Below, piece by piece: positions 1 to 8,790 of a stretch of DNA of 16,584 nucleotides. Source of the DNA: Candidatus Heimdallarchaeota archaeon (GTDB taxonomy: Archaea; Asgardarchaeota; Heimdallarchaeia; Hodarchaeales; Hodarchaeaceae); contig RDOB01000013.1 of NCBI GenBank assembly GCA_011364965.1, positions 1-16,584 of the forward strand, read 5' to 3'. The first letter of the stretch is position 1. The number at the start of each line of letters is the position of its first letter. The notes beneath the pieces were generated by a model. The model was not told where the DNA came from and ran no database searches. It saw only the letters and a program-made list of their open reading frames with translations. The translations under genes and the position numbers were made by a program.

Positions 1-1830
1 CTAGAAAAAACAGCCTTAAACCCGAAAAATGGTGGTAACATTGATAACAAAGCAGAAGCATTAGATAATTTATATAAATTGACAGTTGAAGATTTAAGAG
101 CGAATGTAGATATCAATCCAACCATTGATGTGACTCTAGCTCTTGAAGAGTATGTTGAGGGAGATACAAAATTATTTTGGGTTCCTGATTTAACAGAATA
201 CCCCTATACTTTTTATAAAATTAATGCAACACTAAGAGCGATTGGAAGTCATACTTTAATATATTCAAATTTAACTACAAGTGCTGTCCCTATTTCTTAC
301 TTGGTGAATATGAATAATACCTTTGAAAATCTGATTTTTCCAGAATTAACAGACTTTTTTGGGACCCCCCCAGACATTGATTCAAATGAAAAAATTATTA
401 TATTGATATATGATATTCTGGATATAATGAGCGGAACACAATATGTGGCGGGTTTCTTTTATGCTCTAAACGAATATCTTAACAGTGAGCTTCACCCTAC
501 AGATCCTTTAAAGGGTTACAGCAATGAGGCTGAAATTCTTAATATAGATGGCGTTGAAGGGTTATCCAGTTTAGCTACTAATGATTTTGATACGGTAGCT
601 CATGAGCTTCAACATATGATTCATTGGGGAAATGATAATGATGAGAATTTATGGTTTGACGAGGGAGCTTCGATGTTTTCAGAATACCTTATTGGGGAGG
701 ATCCTTTTGAATCAGGAACCTATAAATCACGATTTGAATCAACACCAGATGTTTCATTAACATACTGGGATTATTATGACGCAGAAGGTTTAGTTTTAAC
801 CAATTATGGAGCCGCTTTTGCATTTTATCTCTATCTAGCAGAGCATTATGGTGGATCTGATTTCATTCGCGATATGGTTCTCCAATCGACAAATGGAATT
901 GAAAGTATTGAGAAAACGTTTCTAGACATGGGAAAAACGGTAAAGTTTTCAGAAATCTTTAGAAATTGGACTATTGCTAATTTTCTAGATGATACTTCCT
1001 TTGCAGGAGGTTCATATGGATATTATAATACCTCATTATCGATGGCTGTCGAATCAACTTATAATTATGCTCCTATACCCCGTACTGAAAATTCAGTCCC
1101 GTACTGGGGAACTGATTACTTAAAATTTAATCTACCATCTGAATTGCCCTTTGATTTAGAATTTCAAGGATCTATTGCAGCCAGGTTTTTAGTTTCTATA
1201 ATATTGAAGAATACTACTTCTGTTCCTCTCAATACGAAGGTAATTCCATTAAAGTTACAAACTGATAACACAGTATCATTTTCAATAAGTGATTTCGGAT
1301 TCAAAGCGGATGAAATCACTCTTACAATATCTTCTTATCCAAAACTGGGAATCCCAGATCATGATGATGAAAATCCAGGCCCTCCACAGACCTACTGGTT
1401 CTTAATTAATCCAGAGGGGATTTTAATTTCAACTGGAGACATAATCCTTCTTGAAGATGGTATAAACATACAAGTAGTAAATATTACAGTTCAAGATACT
1501 AATGAATTTGTCTGGGAGGAGGCTGATGGAGCAACGTGGGAACTATATACCTCATTTGGTAACTTTACAGAACTCACTGGAAATTTTACTTTCAATAATC
1601 AAATGAACTATTGGGAATCTACTACAATTGATATTTCACTCCTATCTGAAGGAGATTATCAATTTAGATATTATTTTTATAACACCACAGCCATTGGGGT
1701 GGCTTATTCTAATATTTTTACTCTCTCTCGTGATACACCCACTACGCCAACAACGATTTCCCTGATACCAGGATTTTTCGTGGTTCTTTCAGTTCTAGCA
1801 TTAGCGGGGTTAAAAATTACTCGTGATTAA
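1..1830 (+). CDS. Surface-anchored zinc metallopeptidase (HExxH; M30/hyicolysin- or M6-like), 5'-truncated, with PGF-CTERM-like anchor
   Basis: Frame 1 is open from base 1 (LEKTALNPKNGG...), so the track's TTG at 79 is probably not the true start. Motifs AGFF, AHELQHMIH and WFDEG. C-terminus has a Thr/Pro linker, IPGF, a hydrophobic helix and a basic tail (TPTTPTTISLIPGFFVVLSVLALAGLKITRD). Confidence 0.8.
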   Translation, partial: LEKTALNPKNGGNIDNKAEALDNLYKLTVEDLRANVDINPTIDVTLALEEYVEGDTKLFWVPDLTEYPYTFYKINATLRAIGSHTLIYSNLTTSAVPISYLVNMNNTFENLIFPELTDFFGTPPDIDSNEKIIILIYDILDIMSGTQYVAGFFYALNEYLNSELHPTDPLKGYSNEAEILNIDGVEGLSSLATNDFDTVAHELQHMIHWGNDNDENLWFDEGASMFSEYLIGEDPFESGTYKSRFESTPDVSLTYWDYYDAEGLVLTNYGAAFAFYLYLAEHYGGSDFIRDMVLQSTNGIESIEKTFLDMGKTVKFSEIFRNWTIANFLDDTSFAGGSYGYYNTSLSMAVESTYNYAPIPRTENSVPYWGTDYLKFNLPSELPFDLEFQGSIAARFLVSIILKNTTSVPLNTKVIPLKLQTDNTVSFSISDFGFKADEITLTISSYPKLGIPDHDDENPGPPQTYWFLINPEGILISTGDIILLEDGINIQVVNITVQDTNEFVWEEADGATWELYTSFGNFTELTGNFTFNNQMNYWESTTIDISLLSEGDYQFRYYFYNTTAIGVAYSNIFTLSRDTPTTPTTISLIPGFFVVLSVLALAGLKITRD

Positions 1831-1852
1831 TCTTCAAAAATTGGAAAGATAC

Positions 1853-3562
1853 TCACTTTCTAAATACCAATATACTTTGATGTACAACACTTGGTATATA
1901 GGAAAAAGGATATCCAAAAATATGTAGGGCTTTATCAGGTGCGTACCAGATTAATTCATGTTGGAACTGATATCCAATTTCTACCAGAGTTCTTGCTAGA
2001 CTAGTGGTAAGGAGAAGATATTGCCCTTTTTTTGGGGACATTTTCTTATCTGGAATTGTCATCGTACGATACATATTCCCAATAAAAACAATTAAATACT
2101 TTTGAGGAGTTAATTTTGCATAACACGCCATAAATACCTCTTTTAACAATTCTAACCATACCTCCAAAGTTGGAATTTCTGTTTCGTTGAATTTACTTAA
2201 TGAGGAATGGAGTTTGTCTCGTGAGGGTTCTCCAGCTCTAGAAAATTTTCCCCGAGTTTTTTCCAATTTATCCATAGCCCAATATGGTACATCTGTCAAA
2301 ATAAGATCAATACTGCTATCAGGTATTTTTTCTGGGATCAAATTTCTTGAATCTCCAACAAAAAAGGGATAAACAGGAAGATCAAATTCTTTTGATACAT
2401 TTTCATAGATCATTTTCCATTCTTTGTTAATATCGATTCCAACTGCATCTTTATTAGCAAGTGCAGCACCTATTAACGTACCTCCAACCCCAGCAAAGGG
2501 ATCAAGAATTTTTATTCCTTCTTCTGGACAATAAATCTCGATTAATAACTGAGTTAACTCGGGAGGTTTCATTCCTCCGTGTTGACGTCTTAATGCATGA
2601 TTATATGAGGGAGGATAAGATTTGTGGATAATTAGAGAACTTCCTACTAATAAGGGAGAAATGATGGCAGAATCAATCAGAAAACTTGTTGAAGAACCTT
2701 TGAGTTCTTTTCGAAAAACCAAGATTCGTCGTTCAATTGGAATTAATTCAGTATGAATTGAATTAGGAGCTGGCTGAAACCAAATTCTCTCTGATTTTAG
2801 CGTTAAGCCATAAACAGACAATATATTGGTAATTAAACCAGTTAGAAAAAAATTTATTGAGCTTGTTCTGGTGAATTGGGAGGATTCTGAACTCAGAAAC
2901 TCGAAATTACCTGGAAGAGAAAGGATGAGGTATTTTTCCATCTTAAGTTTAACAAAAATCTCTTTAAGCAAGTGGACAACCATATTAAGCCAATTTAAAA
3001 TTTTTTTTTCAGGGTCGGTCATGATATCGGTATAATTGAGGCAAAATGAGTTTTGAGAATTTTTATTTGTCGGATTCCAGACAGGAAAATCTGTAATGAC
3101 AAGATCTATGGACTCTGGGGGGATTGAAGAATGTTCTGAGAACTTTAAAAGAGAGATGCTACTTTCAGGTTTAAGGTGTAAATCACTCATGATTTTAGTG
3201 AATTGCACGAAAAATTCTTCCTGCAATTCCAAACCAATAATATTTCTCCTTGGGGGAGGGATATAAGCATTTGCAAATAAAGCTCCGATAAGAAAAGATC
3301 CAGCTCCGAAAAAAGGATCCAAAACTGTTTCTTTTGGTTTGGAAAATGTCTCTACAAGTTCTGTGCAAAGCTGTACAGGGATCGGAGAAAGATTTCTCGT
3401 GATTATATTTTCTCCAAGTATATCGGGATAAGATTTGGGAATAACTGTCTTAGTTGAAAATAACCATTCTTTACCAGTCAAATCATTTAAGGGATTTCTC
3501 TTATCATAAACCCCTCTGTCTTTCCTGTCTTCTTGGTAGTCCTTTAATTCAAATCTTGTCAA
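1853..3562 (-). CDS. Tandem two-domain SAM-dependent amino-methyltransferase (DNA N4-C/N6-A or Trm11-like)
   Basis: Two repeats of KSYP...P..L...L.E...LDPFxGxG followed by DL(V/I)(I/L)TD(F/V)P(V/Y)W and a W(F/Y)xP...(R/S)ILVFRK end. TTG start with an in-frame stop just upstream. Confidence 0.8.
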   Translation of the reverse strand: MTRFELKDYQEDRKDRGVYDKRNPLNDLTGKEWLFSTKTVIPKSYPDILGENIITRNLSPIPVQLCTELVETFSKPKETVLDPFFGAGSFLIGALFANAYIPPPRRNIIGLELQEEFFVQFTKIMSDLHLKPESSISLLKFSEHSSIPPESIDLVITDFPVWNPTNKNSQNSFCLNYTDIMTDPEKKILNWLNMVVHLLKEIFVKLKMEKYLILSLPGNFEFLSSESSQFTRTSSINFFLTGLITNILSVYGLTLKSERIWFQPAPNSIHTELIPIERRILVFRKELKGSSTSFLIDSAIISPLLVGSSLIIHKSYPPSYNHALRRQHGGMKPPELTQLLIEIYCPEEGIKILDPFAGVGGTLIGAALANKDAVGIDINKEWKMIYENVSKEFDLPVYPFFVGDSRNLIPEKIPDSSIDLILTDVPYWAMDKLEKTRGKFSRAGEPSRDKLHSSLSKFNETEIPTLEVWLELLKEVFMACYAKLTPQKYLIVFIGNMYRTMTIPDKKMSPKKGQYLLLTTSLARTLVEIGYQFQHELIWYAPDKALHIFGYPFSYIPSVVHQSILVFRK

Positions 3563-4033: not shown

Positions 4034-5257
4034 ATGCAAGATCATTTTATATTTCGAGAGGCAACAGACCAGGATGCTCAATCAATCAAAAATATCATGA
4101 GATACGCGTTTGAAGGGCATAAAAACCAATATGAAGACCCTGAAAAACCAGATCCTCGCCGAGATTTAACCCATACTTACCCCACAAAAAATTATGTTAT
4201 CGAAGAAAATGGATCCATTGCTGCAAACCTTGGAGTAATTCAATTTCAAGAGCAAATTCGGGGGACTTTTATAAAAATGGCTGGAATTACAGGTGTAGCA
4301 TGTAAACCAGAATATCGACGCTCAGGGTACATGAAACAATTATTTGAATATGTTTTTAAGCTGCTTTATGAGCAAGAATATCTCGTATCAACCTTATATC
4401 CATTTAAATTTGAATTCTATGAGGGATTAGGGTATGGACAGATGGATTCCTTGCACGTTTTTACATTAAAAACCTCTGATATTATCCAAAAGCCAACTCC
4501 TAATCGGATAATTCAAGAAGACTTTGATCCAAATTATAAGCGCTGCCAACCTCTTTATGATATAATTGCTTCTCAATTAGATGGCTTAGCAAAAAGAGAA
4601 TCTTTTATTTGGAAATCTATGCCTGGTTGGACATGGAGAAATCAAGGATATCAGTTTATTTGTCAGGATAAGAATGGGAAAGATTTGGGGTATATTATAC
4701 TTCGGTTTGAGAAAGCAGATGAAAAGAATCCTTTCCCACATATCTTGGTTCGAGAAATGGTGTACTTTGATTCAGAAACTAAACAAGCATTCCTAAATTT
4801 TCTTGCAAATCATGATTCTCAGAGAGAGTTTGTTAAACTAGCCCCATTTGAACATAATATCCTACCATATCTAAGAACACCCCGGATGAAGGAAAATAGG
4901 ATTCAAGATAACTCAATGTTTCGTATAATAAACCTCAATGAGTTATTATTAAGATTAAACTATCCAAATGACGTAAATGAGATGATTACATTTCAAGTGA
5001 CTGATCCTGCAAGTCAGTGCCCCTGGAATAATAAGACGTTAACATTAAAGGTGGAAAATGGAAAGGGTCAAATTGTTACGTCCTCTAATCGCTATCCAAT
5101 AAAAATTGGAATAAAGGAATTGAGTCAGATAGTCATCGGTTTTTATGATCCCTTTGAGTTATTCGAAGCAGGACTTATTTCAGGTGAGAAACATGCGTTT
5201 TCAGCGTTAGGCCAGATCTTCCCTAAGCAAAATACTGCCTTAAGAGAATATTTTTAG
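4034..5257 (+). CDS. Eis-family (enhanced intracellular survival) GNAT acetyltransferase
   Basis: 407 aa; GITGVACKPEYRRSG acetyl-CoA motif, STLYPF..FYEGLGY, SCP2-like C-terminal region, terminal EYF. Confidence 0.88.
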   Translation: MQDHFIFREATDQDAQSIKNIMRYAFEGHKNQYEDPEKPDPRRDLTHTYPTKNYVIEENGSIAANLGVIQFQEQIRGTFIKMAGITGVACKPEYRRSGYMKQLFEYVFKLLYEQEYLVSTLYPFKFEFYEGLGYGQMDSLHVFTLKTSDIIQKPTPNRIIQEDFDPNYKRCQPLYDIIASQLDGLAKRESFIWKSMPGWTWRNQGYQFICQDKNGKDLGYIILRFEKADEKNPFPHILVREMVYFDSETKQAFLNFLANHDSQREFVKLAPFEHNILPYLRTPRMKENRIQDNSMFRIINLNELLLRLNYPNDVNEMITFQVTDPASQCPWNNKTLTLKVENGKGQIVTSSNRYPIKIGIKELSQIVIGFYDPFELFEAGLISGEKHAFSALGQIFPKQNTALREYF

Positions 5258-5310: not shown

Positions 5311-5326
5311 AGAAAAGGAAAAAAGA
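5311..5326 (-). terminator. U-rich archaeal terminator of tRNA-Tyr
   Basis: Minus strand reads TCTTTTTTCCTTTTCT immediately after discriminator A73. Confidence 0.6.
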
Positions 5327-5362
5327 TCCCTTGGCCGTGATTTGAACACGGGACAACTCGGT

Positions 5363-5419
5363 CGCCGCTCATTATTGCTGACACACTCATCACTGTTTCC
5401 TCAGAGGTGCGAACTAGGT
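5363..5419 (-). other. tRNA intron 2, canonical position 37/38, 57 nt
   Basis: Central helix C32-T-G-T35 / GCGG (two G-U pairs), bulges AG|A and CG|A, outer helix CTCGG/CCGAG. The inner helix is weak (relaxed BHL type). Confidence 0.88.
5377..5412 (-). ncRNA. Intron-embedded C/D-type K-turn (K-loop) hairpin; candidate H/ACA-like guide domain
   Basis: Box D CTGA (5404-5401), G-GAAA-C cap, AGT bulge and perfect box C GTGATGA (5393-5387) on stem GCAC-CTC/GAG-(T)-GTGT. The K-turn is directly visible; guide function is inference. Confidence 0.55.
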
Positions 5420-5425
5420 CTACAG

Positions 5426-5475
5426 CCGAGGGCTCTTGGAGGCTTGGATTTATAATCCGAGGGCTCTTCCAGGCT
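5426..5475 (-). repeat. 19-nt imperfect direct repeat (17/19 identical, 12-nt perfect core), period 31
   Basis: AGCCTGGAAGAGCCCTCGG (5475-5457) versus AGCCTCCAAGAGCCCTCGG (5444-5426). Confidence 0.95.
5435..5465 (-). other. tRNA intron 1, non-canonical position 22/23, 31 nt
   Basis: BHB-like motif: central helix TGGA/TCCA, each strand followed by an AG|A bulge and closed by single G-C pairs; internal hairpin GGATT-ATA-AATCC. Removal restores the D-stem. Among the registers allowed by the direct repeat, this is the only one I found that gives a 4-bp central helix. Confidence 0.8.
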
Positions 5476-5505
5476 GAGCTACCAAGGGAATTATTGCATT
5501 AAAGT

Positions 5506-5718: not shown

Positions 5719-7011
5719 ATGGATTATTCAAACCTTAAAGTCTTCCTTTATTGGGATAAATATACGTGGTATGCATTAGGGGCATTATCGGCTAGCTTAC
5801 AAAAACATCAAATTCCCTATGAAGTTATCAAGGGAAATGTCAAGCAACCTATCTCTAAAGCATTGAATACGGATTATAGAGTAATTTACGCAGAATCATC
5901 GCGTAGCTGGACCATTGAAGCATTGAAAAATCGCCTTAAAATAATTAAGAAGGCATTTACTTCTGCTGATATCTTAGTTGTAGTTGGGGGACCTCATGCA
6001 ACAGGAGTACCAGAGGAGATTTTAAACATGGGAGGCGATGTAGTAGTAATAGGAGAAGGAGAGGAGACTTTTCCACATCTAGTTAAAACATTTGCCCAAA
6101 AACCAATAACAAATGGTGATTTGGAAACAATCCCTGGAATTGCTTATTTAGATCAATATAAAACTGTACAAAGAACCAAGCGTCGCCCCAGTATTGATTT
6201 GGATTCCTATTGTCCTTATTCTGATAATCCAAAATTTTCAATCCATCCTCCCATTGAACTCATGAGAGGGTGCGCATTTCGATGTCGGTTCTGTCAAGTT
6301 CCTTATATGTATGGTAATCCTCGTTTTCGCTCAATAAAAAATATTGAAACCATTGTTAAGCATTATATCAATCATTTTAAGCCAATAAAGAAAACTGTTG
6401 ACATTCGGTTCATTGCACCTAACTCCCTAGGTTATATGGAGAAAAAAAGGGGAATTCCAAATGTATCCCGACTTAAGGAATTAATCGATTGTCTAACTCA
6501 ATATGATATTCGTCTTTTTTTTGGAACCTTTCCTTCAGAGGTTCGGCCTGAATATATTACTGAAGAGACGATTTCTCTCTTTGAAAAAATTAGTAATAAT
6601 TCAATTTCAATCGGTTTTCAAAGTGGATCAGACAATATTTTAACCAATATGAGACGCGAGCACACCGTACAAGATGGTTTAGCCGCGTTTGAAATTATGA
6701 AATCACATGGATATCTTCCTGTTTTTGATTTCATCCTAGGGACTCCTTCCGAAACTTTAAGCGCACAATGGGAGACCCTAGATCTTGTTCGGCAGTTTCA
6801 GGGAAAAGCACTTGTTCGATTACATTATTTTATGCCACTTCCAGGTACCCCCTGGCAGGATCTGATTCCTGTCCCTCTTAGTTCAGAAATTTTAACAGAA
6901 ATCGGACGTCTTGCCAAAGCTAAGATTATTACAGGAGAGTTCGTCAAACAGATGAATCAAATAGAAAAACTTCTTGAGTCTCGAAATCCTCAAGTCTTGA
7001 GTAATTCTTGA
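5719..7011 (+). CDS. B12-binding domain/radical SAM protein (resembles TIGR04013, MJ_1487 family)
   Basis: VVVGGPHAT...DVVVIGEGE cobalamin-binding-domain motifs; CAFRCRFC (CxxxCxxC); RFIAPNSLGY and FFGTFPSEVRPE, which I recall as family motifs. Confidence 0.85.
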   Translation: MDYSNLKVFLYWDKYTWYALGALSASLQKHQIPYEVIKGNVKQPISKALNTDYRVIYAESSRSWTIEALKNRLKIIKKAFTSADILVVVGGPHATGVPEEILNMGGDVVVIGEGEETFPHLVKTFAQKPITNGDLETIPGIAYLDQYKTVQRTKRRPSIDLDSYCPYSDNPKFSIHPPIELMRGCAFRCRFCQVPYMYGNPRFRSIKNIETIVKHYINHFKPIKKTVDIRFIAPNSLGYMEKKRGIPNVSRLKELIDCLTQYDIRLFFGTFPSEVRPEYITEETISLFEKISNNSISIGFQSGSDNILTNMRREHTVQDGLAAFEIMKSHGYLPVFDFILGTPSETLSAQWETLDLVRQFQGKALVRLHYFMPLPGTPWQDLIPVPLSSEILTEIGRLAKAKIITGEFVKQMNQIEKLLESRNPQVLSNS

Positions 7012-7080: not shown

Positions 7081-8790
7081 ATGTTATTTCTTGATTTCTG
7101 TCTAGTAATGGAACAAATTCAAGCTACCACGAAGAAAAACGAGAAAGTTGAGCTTTTTGCGAATTTTCTTCGTCAACTTATTGATAAAGAACTCCCCCTT
7201 GTATGTTATTATGCCTCAGGAAGAGCATTTTCAAAAATATCTCCTTTAAAAATCCAAATGGGATGGAGCTCTTGTCAAGCAGTTGTAAACAAGCTAACAA
7301 AATACACTCGTTCTGAATTATCTTCTTTTTACAGAAAAAATTCTGATTTTGGAAGCATGGTTGAATTTGCATTAAATAAACGGAAACCTCAAGCACAACC
7401 ACTTGAAAGTTATTTCAGCGTAACCAAACAAGAACCCAAACTTACAATTCTTATGTTAAATGAATTTTTCACTGAAATCGCTACAATTTCAGGAAAAAGA
7501 GCAATTGAAACAAAGAAAAATCGCCTACTCTCTTTTCTTCAACTTACTTCCCCTTTAGAGGCCAAATATGTAACCCGAATAATTACCTCTGATACCCGAA
7601 CAGGCTTTCGGGAAGGATTGGTTCTAGACTCAATCGTGAAAGCGTTTAACCGAGAGAAAGAAGAGGTAGAATATGCTCATATGATACTAAGCGACATAGG
7701 GAAAACAGCAGTAAGGGCAAAAGACTCAAAAATTAACTTATTCGCTCTTAAGCCTGAACTCTTCAATCCATTGAAATCTATGCTGGCAACGAAGGTTGAA
7801 ACTATTTCAAAAGCTCTTGAAGCTTTTCCTTTGTTGATTTGTGAACCAAAAATTGATGGATTCCGTGCCCAACTACACATTTCTAAAAAAGAGTGTAAGC
7901 TTTATTCCCGGAATCAGGAGGATATCACTCAAGGTTTTCCTGAAATTATTGATGATGTTTCTATTCAAGTTAGACATGATTATCAGAATACAATTATTGA
8001 TGGCGAAGTAGTTGCTATTGTAGATGGAAAGCCAGTTTTTTTCCAGGATTTGCTTACACGAGTTTTACGTAAACAAGAGGTGGAAGAGTCTATTTTAAAA
8101 ACTCCCTGCTATTTCTATATGTTCGATATAACCCTATCCAAAGGGGAGTCTCTTTTAAATAAACCTCTTCTAGACAGAAAAAAAGCATTAAATACAATTC
8201 CAACCTTAAAGCATTTAGAGATTATTAGGTACAAATTACTATCAGATGAAACCGAAATAAAAAACTTCTTTCAACAAATGATAAAACGGGGGTTCGAAGG
8301 ACTTATGCTAAAAGATCCACACTCTAAATACCTGGCAGGTAAACGAGGTAAAAACTGGTTGAAGTTAAAAACCTCACTTCCCACCTTAGATCTTGTCATA
8401 ATTGCTGCGGAGTGGGGACATGGACGACGGACTGGATGGTTATCTAATTATCATCTCGCTGCAAGAGATAAGAATAATTATCAGGTTATTGGAAAAACGT
8501 TCAAGGGTTTGACTGATAGTGAATTTCAATACCTAACAGATCTATTAAATTCAATAAAAACCAGCTCAAAATCTTGGGGGATCGCTGTTAAACCTCAGGT
8601 TGTTGTAGAAGTTGAATTTGACAATATTCAGCAATCATCCAAATATGAATCTGGGATGGCACTTCGATTTGCTCGGATTAAACGAATTCGACCTGATAAG
8701 TCTGTGGAGGAAATTGACACAATTAAGAGTGTCCAACAGCTATATGAAAACCAGTTAGAAAGACAAGAACGTTCTAAACAAAGCCAATGA
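7081..8790 (+). CDS. lig: ATP-dependent DNA ligase (archaeal Lig1 type)
   Basis: Motif I EPKIDGFR, III IIDGEVV, IIIa FYMFDI, IV EGLMLK, V WLKLK, VI LRFARIKRIRPDK. N-terminal DNA-binding domain has a PIP-like loop QAQPLESYF. Confidence 0.97.
   Translation: MLFLDFCLVMEQIQATTKKNEKVELFANFLRQLIDKELPLVCYYASGRAFSKISPLKIQMGWSSCQAVVNKLTKYTRSELSSFYRKNSDFGSMVEFALNKRKPQAQPLESYFSVTKQEPKLTILMLNEFFTEIATISGKRAIETKKNRLLSFLQLTSPLEAKYVTRIITSDTRTGFREGLVLDSIVKAFNREKEEVEYAHMILSDIGKTAVRAKDSKINLFALKPELFNPLKSMLATKVETISKALEAFPLLICEPKIDGFRAQLHISKKECKLYSRNQEDITQGFPEIIDDVSIQVRHDYQNTIIDGEVVAIVDGKPVFFQDLLTRVLRKQEVEESILKTPCYFYMFDITLSKGESLLNKPLLDRKKALNTIPTLKHLEIIRYKLLSDETEIKNFFQQMIKRGFEGLMLKDPHSKYLAGKRGKNWLKLKTSLPTLDLVIIAAEWGHGRRTGWLSNYHLAARDKNNYQVIGKTFKGLTDSEFQYLTDLLNSIKTSSKSWGIAVKPQVVVEVEFDNIQQSSKYESGMALRFARIKRIRPDKSVEEIDTIKSVQQLYENQLERQERSKQSQ

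Follow-up and report, generated by a model that had tools for sequence, protein, structure and literature searches.

The tRNA-Tyr gene and its two introns

The stretch of DNA analysed here (the window) is an entire 16.6-kb contig, RDOB01000013.1, from a metagenome-assembled genome (MAG) of Candidatus Heimdallarchaeota archaeon (GCA_011364965.1), an Asgard archaeon of the Hodarchaeales, that comprises 2.97 Mb in 16 contigs and is 87% complete. On its minus strand, at 5327–5488, lies a tRNA-Tyr(GUA) gene of 162 nt that specifies a 74-nt mature product, does not encode the CCA end, and is interrupted twice. The upstream interruption, a 31-nt intron in the D-arm that we call intron 1, is the subject of this report; it appears to have been built from the sequence of the gene itself.

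Coordinates are those of the window, all features of the gene are on the minus strand, and nucleotides of the precursor RNA are numbered as i = 5489 minus the window coordinate. The 5′ exon (5466–5488) supplies tRNA positions 1–22, which are precursor nucleotides 1–23, and its 3′ end reads ...UGGAAG. Intron 1 (5435–5465) follows at the non-canonical position 22/23. The middle exon (5420–5434), AGCCCUCGGCUGUAG, supplies positions 23–37 and is followed at the canonical position 37/38 by intron 2 (5363–5419), which has 57 nt and is found genus-wide; the 3′ exon (5327–5362) supplies positions 38–73. Directly after the discriminator base comes a T-rich tract (5317–5326) that reads as the likely transcription stop. 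Intron 2 contains a conserved CUGA...UGAUGA hairpin that is kink-turn-like (box C′/D′-like), and this hairpin is kept genus-wide although its flanks diverge.

In the window the locus was missed as a tRNA both by default ARAGORN and by an Rfam gathering search. The ARAGORN parse that allows an intron proposed a tRNA-Tyr(ata) with a 67-nt intron, which we rejected as a mis-parse of the locus. Once the 31 nt at 5465–5435 are removed, ARAGORN calls a tRNA-Tyr(gta) with the canonical 57-nt intron, and removal of both inserts leaves a perfect 74-nt cloverleaf. The mature sequence is identical at 74/74 positions to the tRNA-Tyr of the relatives G004 and G013, and at 73/74 to that of G002 and G010. 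A search of the source genome found the gene at 5488–5327 to be the sole tRNA-Tyr sequence of the assembly, with no other tRNA-Tyr fragment. The insert lies 5.4 kb from the contig end, and there is no N nearby. Reading the sequence upstream of the gene we saw no clear TATA box, unlike the situation in several relatives.

Direct repeat, spacer and predicted splice helix

Each junction of intron 1 with an exon lies within one copy of a 19-nt direct repeat. Copy 1 (5457–5475; i 14–32; AGCCUGGAAGAGCCCUCGG) comprises 10 nt of exon and then the first 9 nt of intron 1, while copy 2 (5426–5444; i 45–63; AGCCUCCAAGAGCCCUCGG) comprises the last 10 nt of intron 1 and then 9 nt of exon; between them is a 12-nt spacer (5445–5456), AUUAUAAAUCCA. 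The copies are identical at 17/19 positions, the lag between them, 31, is the length of intron 1, and the sole differences, on the tRNA strand, are GG in copy 1 and CC in copy 2. Seen from the intron, its first 9 nt are all identical to the start of the downstream exon, and its last 10 nt match the end of the upstream exon at 8/10 positions. Because the 12 bases after the GG/CC site are the same in both copies, any 31-nt excision register within them gives the same product.

Chance can be set aside as the source of the repeat, both within the gene and across the genome. Its score of 13 was reached, at any lag, by 1/5000 dinucleotide-preserving shuffles of the gene. After a low-complexity filter, the 2.97-Mb genome contains 29 repeat events of at least 17/19 at lags of 20–120, and that of tRNA-Tyr is the only one in a tRNA; the events are mostly protein repeats, and three are scaffold-gap artefacts beside NN. 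These three are exact duplications of about 82 nt with a lag of 87 (C11:272850-273018, C12:180280-180448 and C13:251938-252105), and they have the look of contig overlaps that the assembly left unmerged at scaffold gaps. When the whole 31-nt insert is compared with the prediction for a tandem duplicate, taken as the downstream exon start plus the upstream exon end, the fit has z = 6.0, and 0/300 shuffles were as good.

The spacer can be placed in the same scheme. With one inserted A, AUUAUAAAUCCA aligns to CUGUAGACCUA, which consists of the anticodon loop and the opening bases of intron 2; after the inserted A, TTATAAATCCA against CTGTAGACCTA gives 6 identities, 5 transitions and 0 transversions, and the purine/pyrimidine class matches at 11/11 positions. 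In a post hoc test this fit was matched by random genomic 12-mers or shuffled spacers at p about 0.002–0.006. With the spacer so aligned, the entire intron reads as a decayed 30-nt tandem duplicate that begins at A14 and ends four bases into intron 2. In the duplicate register it matches its own flanks at 23/30 positions, and its departures from a perfect 30-nt duplicate are one insertion, five transitions and two G>C transversions. The original prediction, made from the letters of the window, had described a 19-nt repeat with a period equal to the intron length and differing by GG>CC alone, and had compared the remainder of the intron with a decayed anticodon arm; our repeat search recovers the former as stated, and the latter is borne out with the better alignment given here. 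While 5/11 spacer positions have changed, the exons have stayed intact. Exons that are frozen beside a decaying spacer point to a working gene under selection, and hence to an insert that must be removed.

The two differing bases of the repeat fall in a potential splice helix. Its exon strand is UGGA at 5468–5471 (U18–A21), which includes G18 and G19, and its intron strand is UCCA at 5437–5440 (U49–A52), whose CC is the pair of bases by which the repeat copies differ; together they form a central helix of 4 bp. Each strand is followed by AGA, namely A22 G23 A24 at the 5′ splice site (5465–5467) and A53 G54 A55 at the 3′ splice site (5434–5436), and each AGA has a GCC flank, which is the layout of a bulge-helix-bulge (BHB) motif. 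The predicted cut in each is AG/A, with which the 5′ exon ends at G23, intron 1 extends from A24 to G54, and the next exon begins at A55. Folding the local segment without constraints gives a minimum-free-energy (MFE) structure that contains the UGGA/UCCA helix, and in the full precursor the pair probabilities of this helix are 0.54–0.96, falling to 0 when CC is reverted to GG. Fold and revertant thus agree with the earlier proposal that GG>CC turns TGGA/TGGA into a TGGA/TCCA helix, with both AGA bulges supplied by the duplication. The exon motif, GCC-UGGA-AGA-GCC, is near self-complementary except for the GG, so two substitutions suffice to make a helix from its duplicate.

The archaeal splicing endonuclease EndA is represented in the genome by two EndA-domain genes (C13:74167-74421 and C13:105545-105805), of 156 and 214 amino acids, that are 25% identical. 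One paralog has the Tyr/His/Lys pattern; the longer one is without the catalytic His and has a weak match to Sen15. Two such divergent paralogs, we assume, point to a heteromer of a catalytic and a structural subunit (alpha/beta-type) with a broad substrate range, and from their sequences we infer that the enzyme of this organism is an alpha/beta heteromer of the two.

The gene in relatives and the other tRNA genes of the genome

The genus has 22 species in our reference set; besides the source genome, 16 species yielded a tRNA-Tyr gene, as did one metagenome contig. Comparing these alleles, as the original prediction had envisaged for sister taxa, gave absence throughout: the 31-nt insert is missing from 17/17, and none is intermediate. 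The homologous canonical intron is present in all 17 and is the only intron in 11/17. In those loci that reach it, the same radical-SAM gene adjoins tRNA-Tyr, which identifies the locus as orthologous. Intron 2 of the source genome is closest to that of G019 and G012 (84% identity), both of them without a D-arm intron, and a tree of the radical-SAM gene pairs the source genome with G006, also without one; as all three lack it, the insert was gained on the lineage of the source genome. A scan with the intron-2 core as query picked up one metagenome contig and four contigs from MAGs, none of which carries the D-arm insert.

Extra introns do occur in the tRNA-Tyr of other species. In G012, G009 and G008 a further intron of about 30 nt interrupts the T-loop at 59/60 (L003, L004, L009 / L050, L051, L053); its central helix joins TTCA or TTCG with TGAA, TGGA or CGAA, and its sequence varies by species. 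G004, G002 and G013 have another intron of about 30 nt at nearly the same D-loop site as intron 1 (21/22 to 22/23). There the exonic UGGA is paired with UCUA, at probabilities of 0.34–0.74; the intron also has a hairpin with compensatory changes, and its sequence is not significantly similar to intron 1 (p 0.09–0.25). The near self-complementarity of the D-loop motif may explain why this site has been used twice in the genus. We also considered whether the intron of G004, G002 and G013 is an older product of the same process as intron 1. It contains TGTAGA and CTTAG-like strings, but its fit to the duplicate model was marginal (p 0.04–0.15), with a reference that was chosen post hoc, and we make no such claim.

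The surroundings of the gene vary. Some species have it facing the neighbouring radical-SAM gene, others have it facing the opposite way, and the type of intron 2 does not follow the radical-SAM tree, in which G008 and G003 are sisters with different intron types. Both observations mark the locus as unstable in the genus, and they suggest that the tRNA-Tyr gene was repeatedly replaced or inverted. Using the radical-SAM tree for species polarity, as a means of dating, was dropped, given that intron-2 type and tRNA orientation disagree with it. In the window itself, the genes nearby encode an N6/N4 DNA methylase (1853–3562, minus strand), a GNAT acetyltransferase with an SCP2 domain (4034–5257, plus strand), the B12-binding radical-SAM protein (5719–7011, plus strand) and an ATP-dependent DNA ligase (7081–8790, plus strand). 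We saw nothing that connects these four to the tRNA-Tyr feature. Exact look-ups of the proteins of the two flanking genes, made to find independent assemblies, returned no record, in a collection from which the genome's own records may be absent.

Elsewhere in the source genome, a search with intron 1 found no similar sequence, only chance matches, the best of them in a coding-like region; for the spacer, a genome-wide search that allowed up to 2 mismatches came back empty. The tRNA-Lys(CTT) gene (105 nt; C1 109632-109736, minus-strand coordinates) also contains a 31-nt D-arm intron at the same site (20/21 to 22/23). This intron has an inner hairpin, TTGGTC/GACCAA, we found no clean central helix in it, and it is not significantly similar to intron 1 (p 0.06). 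The occurrence of one intron in unrelated tRNAs, named in the original prediction as the sign of transposition, was therefore not seen, either in the own-genome search or in the comparison of D-arm introns.

An acceptor/T-arm rule yielded a census of 31 tRNA genes in the source genome, about 20 of them interrupted, which we scored for internal direct repeats with two scoring schemes. The expectation that such repeats might be found in non-canonical introns held for tRNA-Tyr, where the result is significant, and failed for the rest of the census, in which there was no second case; the next-best genes had p about 0.04, at lags that do not fit their introns. The other introns of the genome are either too old to show a repeat or of different origin. 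A scan of GC islands for hidden tRNAs (1748 islands) missed 10/35 known genes and was dropped. On C12 and C13, at least 16 tRNA genes have a T-loop insert of about 29–41 nt (a T-arm gap of 36–48), and several tRNA genes have two or three inserts, among them a 195-nt tRNA-Trp gene (C12:367106) and a 185-nt gene (C12:268014).

Origin of intron 1

Taken together, we consider it probable that intron 1 is a young, lineage-specific BHB-type intron made by tandem duplication of the gene's own sequence. A local duplication from the D-loop to the anticodon was what the original prediction had proposed, and it is upheld by the duplicate register, the absence of the insert in relatives, the lack of a donor copy and the helix produced by GG>CC. 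In the course of events that we envisage, a 30-nt stretch of the ancestral tRNA-Tyr gene would have been duplicated in tandem; the unit would have begun at A14 in the D-loop, taken in the D-stem, the 5′ anticodon stem and the anticodon loop, and ended with the first four bases of the canonical intron. Later, one base would have been inserted, the upstream copy of the anticodon loop would have picked up five transitions, of which four are GC to AT, and G18 G19 in the downstream copy would have become CC. The intronic UCCA could then pair with the exonic UGGA, and the identical AGA triplets would take up the pseudo-symmetric positions of a relaxed BHB. EndA, presumably of the two-paralog, alpha/beta type, would cut AG/A twice, and a ligase would join the exons to give the tRNA of the relatives. 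That intron 1 is spliced at all, where exactly it would be cut and in which order the changes came are what we infer from the sequence.

A perfect duplicate has UGGA facing UGGA and no helix, and would therefore be expected to be lethal in a single-copy essential gene. The duplicated unit, however, would have carried the 5′ splice site of intron 2, and splicing from the upstream copy of this site to the lone 3′ site would still yield a normal tRNA. The extra copy would be hidden inside an enlarged intron 2 until GG>CC opened a second route; from then on the upstream anticodon loop would have been free to decay, or would have been selected to do so, and its changes would also destroy the decoy CUGU helix strand. 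An upstream intron-2 5′ site is thus a likely way around the lethal intermediate.

Several points weigh against an origin by tandem duplication. On the structural side, each flanking helix, in which GCC faces GCC, has just 2 bp and a C that is unpaired or mismatched, the folding model favours pairing of the middle G in each AGA, and after removal of intron 2 it favours the D-stem over the 3′ cut site. The strict BHB conformer, with both AGA open, stands at +1.6 kcal/mol in the full precursor and at +3.8 kcal/mol after intron 2 removal. Given the 2-bp flanks and the modelled pairing of the middle G, the motif is best called BHB-like and relaxed rather than a textbook hBHBh′. On the side of the sequence, the spacer test is post hoc, and the spacer has changed at 5/11 positions while the 19-nt repeat has changed at 0/17 outside the helix; this gap in divergence needs either structural constraint, selection against a decoy site, or another origin of the spacer. 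We found no intermediate allele, with a GG or a CC duplication, in metagenome and genome contigs, in which close strains are poorly sampled, and no second repeat-built intron among the 31 tRNA genes of the genome. Finally, with the MAG at 87% completeness, an unseen second copy of tRNA-Tyr may exist.

The divergence of the spacer would be accounted for if the duplication had covered no more than the 19 nt and the AT-rich 12 nt of spacer were unrelated filler. Such filler could have been left when a double-strand break in the anticodon stem was sloppily repaired, or by the collapse of a larger partial duplication made by a homing cassette, in which an old front end, a cassette and a new gene stood in a row before a deletion left 12 nt. 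The intron would still consist of duplicated exon sequence with GG>CC, without a simple 30-nt tandem duplication. A cassette of this sort is found in G002 (L007, G002:C87 ~1657-2926, minus strand), where a decaying copy of tRNA-Tyr 1–29, with the D-loop intron in it, precedes the intact gene by 1.27 kb and is separated from it by a cassette of about 1.2 kb with a 285-aa LAGLIDADG open reading frame (L007 1964-2821, plus strand); the arrangement looks like a homing-type cassette that replaced the gene front. The tRNA-Tyr locus is, moreover, often rearranged or replaced among species, and a repeat with 0/17 neutral changes looks much younger than a spacer with 5/11. We nevertheless regard filler as an unlikely source of the spacer, which keeps the purine/pyrimidine pattern of the anticodon loop and intron 2 at 11/11 positions (p about 0.002–0.006, as above). 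The junction in G002 is at position ~29, whereas the first copy here reaches at least 31, and a search of the source genome with the G002 protein found no homolog of this endonuclease; a homing endonuclease might in principle have made the break here, but was set aside as its source. Filler would also take two events instead of one, and it leaves the unspliceable GG/GG intermediate unsolved. A different doubt is whether the insert is removed at all: the tRNA-Tyr copy at this locus could be dead or decaying, or the duplication could be an error of the assembly, and the functional gene would then sit in the unassembled 13%. The incomplete MAG, the three scaffold-gap duplications of its assembly, the rejection of the locus by standard tRNA finders and the want of a clear TATA box upstream all speak for this, yet it is very unlikely in view of exons that are flawless (74/74) beside 5 changes in 11 nt of spacer, of a repeat whose only two changes are those that create the splice helix, of a T-tract after the gene, and of an assembly without any other tRNA-Tyr fragment. 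The unique, diverged spacer, with no N nearby, is also unlike the scaffold artefacts.

The D-loop introns of the genus raise the question of common descent, and the 31-nt intron of tRNA-Lys(CTT) that of movement between genes. The D-loop intron could be old, shared by the source genome with G004, G002 and G013 and lost in the other species, if gene conversion from the exons overwrote most of it in the lineage of the source genome and so introduced the repeat secondarily. This would fit the presence in these three congeners of a roughly 30-nt intron at 21/22 to 22/23 that uses the same exon strand, UGGA, and of a mature tRNA that is called identical (74/74 for G004 and G013; 73/74 for G002). 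The introns themselves are not significantly similar (p 0.09–0.25), the canonical introns differ (56–60% identity), and the species fall into separate clades of the neighbour-gene tree; many losses would be needed, and two separate exon segments would have to be converted into a 31-nt intron while keeping tandem register. We give this history very little credence. Still less can be said for a mobile or horizontally acquired BHB intron that resembles the flanking exons by chance, and we give it next to none. For Thermoproteales, the published model has introns transposing between tRNA genes (Fujishima 2010, cited by the review PMC4090602), and the tRNA-Lys(CTT) intron has the same length and site as intron 1. 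A foreign element would, on the other hand, not be expected to match its own flanks at 23/30 positions in duplicate register. With no copies of intron 1 or of its spacer elsewhere in the genome, and with a tRNA-Lys intron that is unrelated (p 0.06), transposition is unsupported, and tandem duplication remains the reading that we prefer.

Relation to known introns and meaning

To our knowledge, the most interrupted tRNA genes known are those of Asgard archaea. An October 2026 preprint surveying Asgard tRNA introns reports 129 high-confidence gains, mostly recent and lineage-specific, with repeated gains on terminal branches and with annotator-missed D-arm introns that are often without canonical motifs (bioRxiv 10.64898/2026.10.13.758758). 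Inter-tRNA copying, mobile elements and reverse transcription were tested there as sources, local duplication was not, and the arrival of the intron DNA is named ‘the central open problem’ (bioRxiv 10.64898/2026.10.13.758758). Compared with the Asgard non-canonical BHB introns of Valentin-Alvarado et al. 2024, in the form in which the preprint cites them, intron 1 is likewise a short D-arm insert missed by annotators, gained on a terminal branch at a BHB-capable site and coexisting with a canonical intron. Unlike the introns of these Asgard studies, which as described there come without a route of arrival, its sequence is traceable to the flanking gene. In Thermoproteales, late intron gain has transposition as a known route (review PMC4090602), and this too, as the review presents it, is gain of a BHB intron at the DNA level, late and at a non-canonical position (Fujishima et al. 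2010). The Thermoproteales model rests, in the same account, on near-identical introns across tRNA genes, whereas the donor of intron 1 is the same gene. A full-text literature search found no paper proposing a tandem-duplication route for BHB introns. These comparisons support placing intron 1 in a known kind, the non-canonical Asgard tRNA introns, with an origin by local duplication that appears readable from its sequence.

Within the genus, the tRNA duplications made by integrating elements or homing cassettes, such as that of G002, are likewise direct repeats of part of tRNA-Tyr. Those repeats bracket at least 1 kb, and the dead fragment is outside the gene; here 12 nt lie between the copies, and both are in one transcription unit. 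A closer parallel in mechanism is the model of Rogers, according to which spliceosomal introns are gained by tandem duplication of an exon segment, and which is reportedly supported by experiments in which segmental duplication generated a functional intron. In that model, as here, the duplication supplies both splice signals, the intron consists of the end of one unit and the start of the next, and the product is unchanged. The difference is that a protein endonuclease reads the fold of the RNA, not AG/GT, and that two extra substitutions are needed: a direct repeat cannot pair with itself, so the helix requires GG>CC.

Whether the case can be generalized is doubtful. BHB introns could conceivably reach Asgard tRNA genes on a regular basis through local tandem duplication, and perhaps also the genes for rRNA, signal recognition particle (SRP) RNA and mRNA; on this tentative reading, each duplication would cover either an exon motif that is quasi-palindromic or an existing intron's splice site. 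Since the donor would be the gene itself and decay would be fast, there would be no footprints of a shared family, of mobile elements or of reverse transcription, and tests for these would come back empty. If true, such a route would explain why a few sites are hit repeatedly, for example the D-loop UGGA-AGA-GCC.

At this locus the source of a new intron seems legible as the adjacent 30 bases of its own gene, evidence of a rare kind for the origin of enzyme-spliced archaeal introns. Two substitutions give the splice helix, and the arrival of intron DNA thereby becomes a testable question. It would be an enzyme-spliced counterpart to the tandem-duplication model for spliceosomal introns, in the prokaryotes that are closest to eukaryotes.

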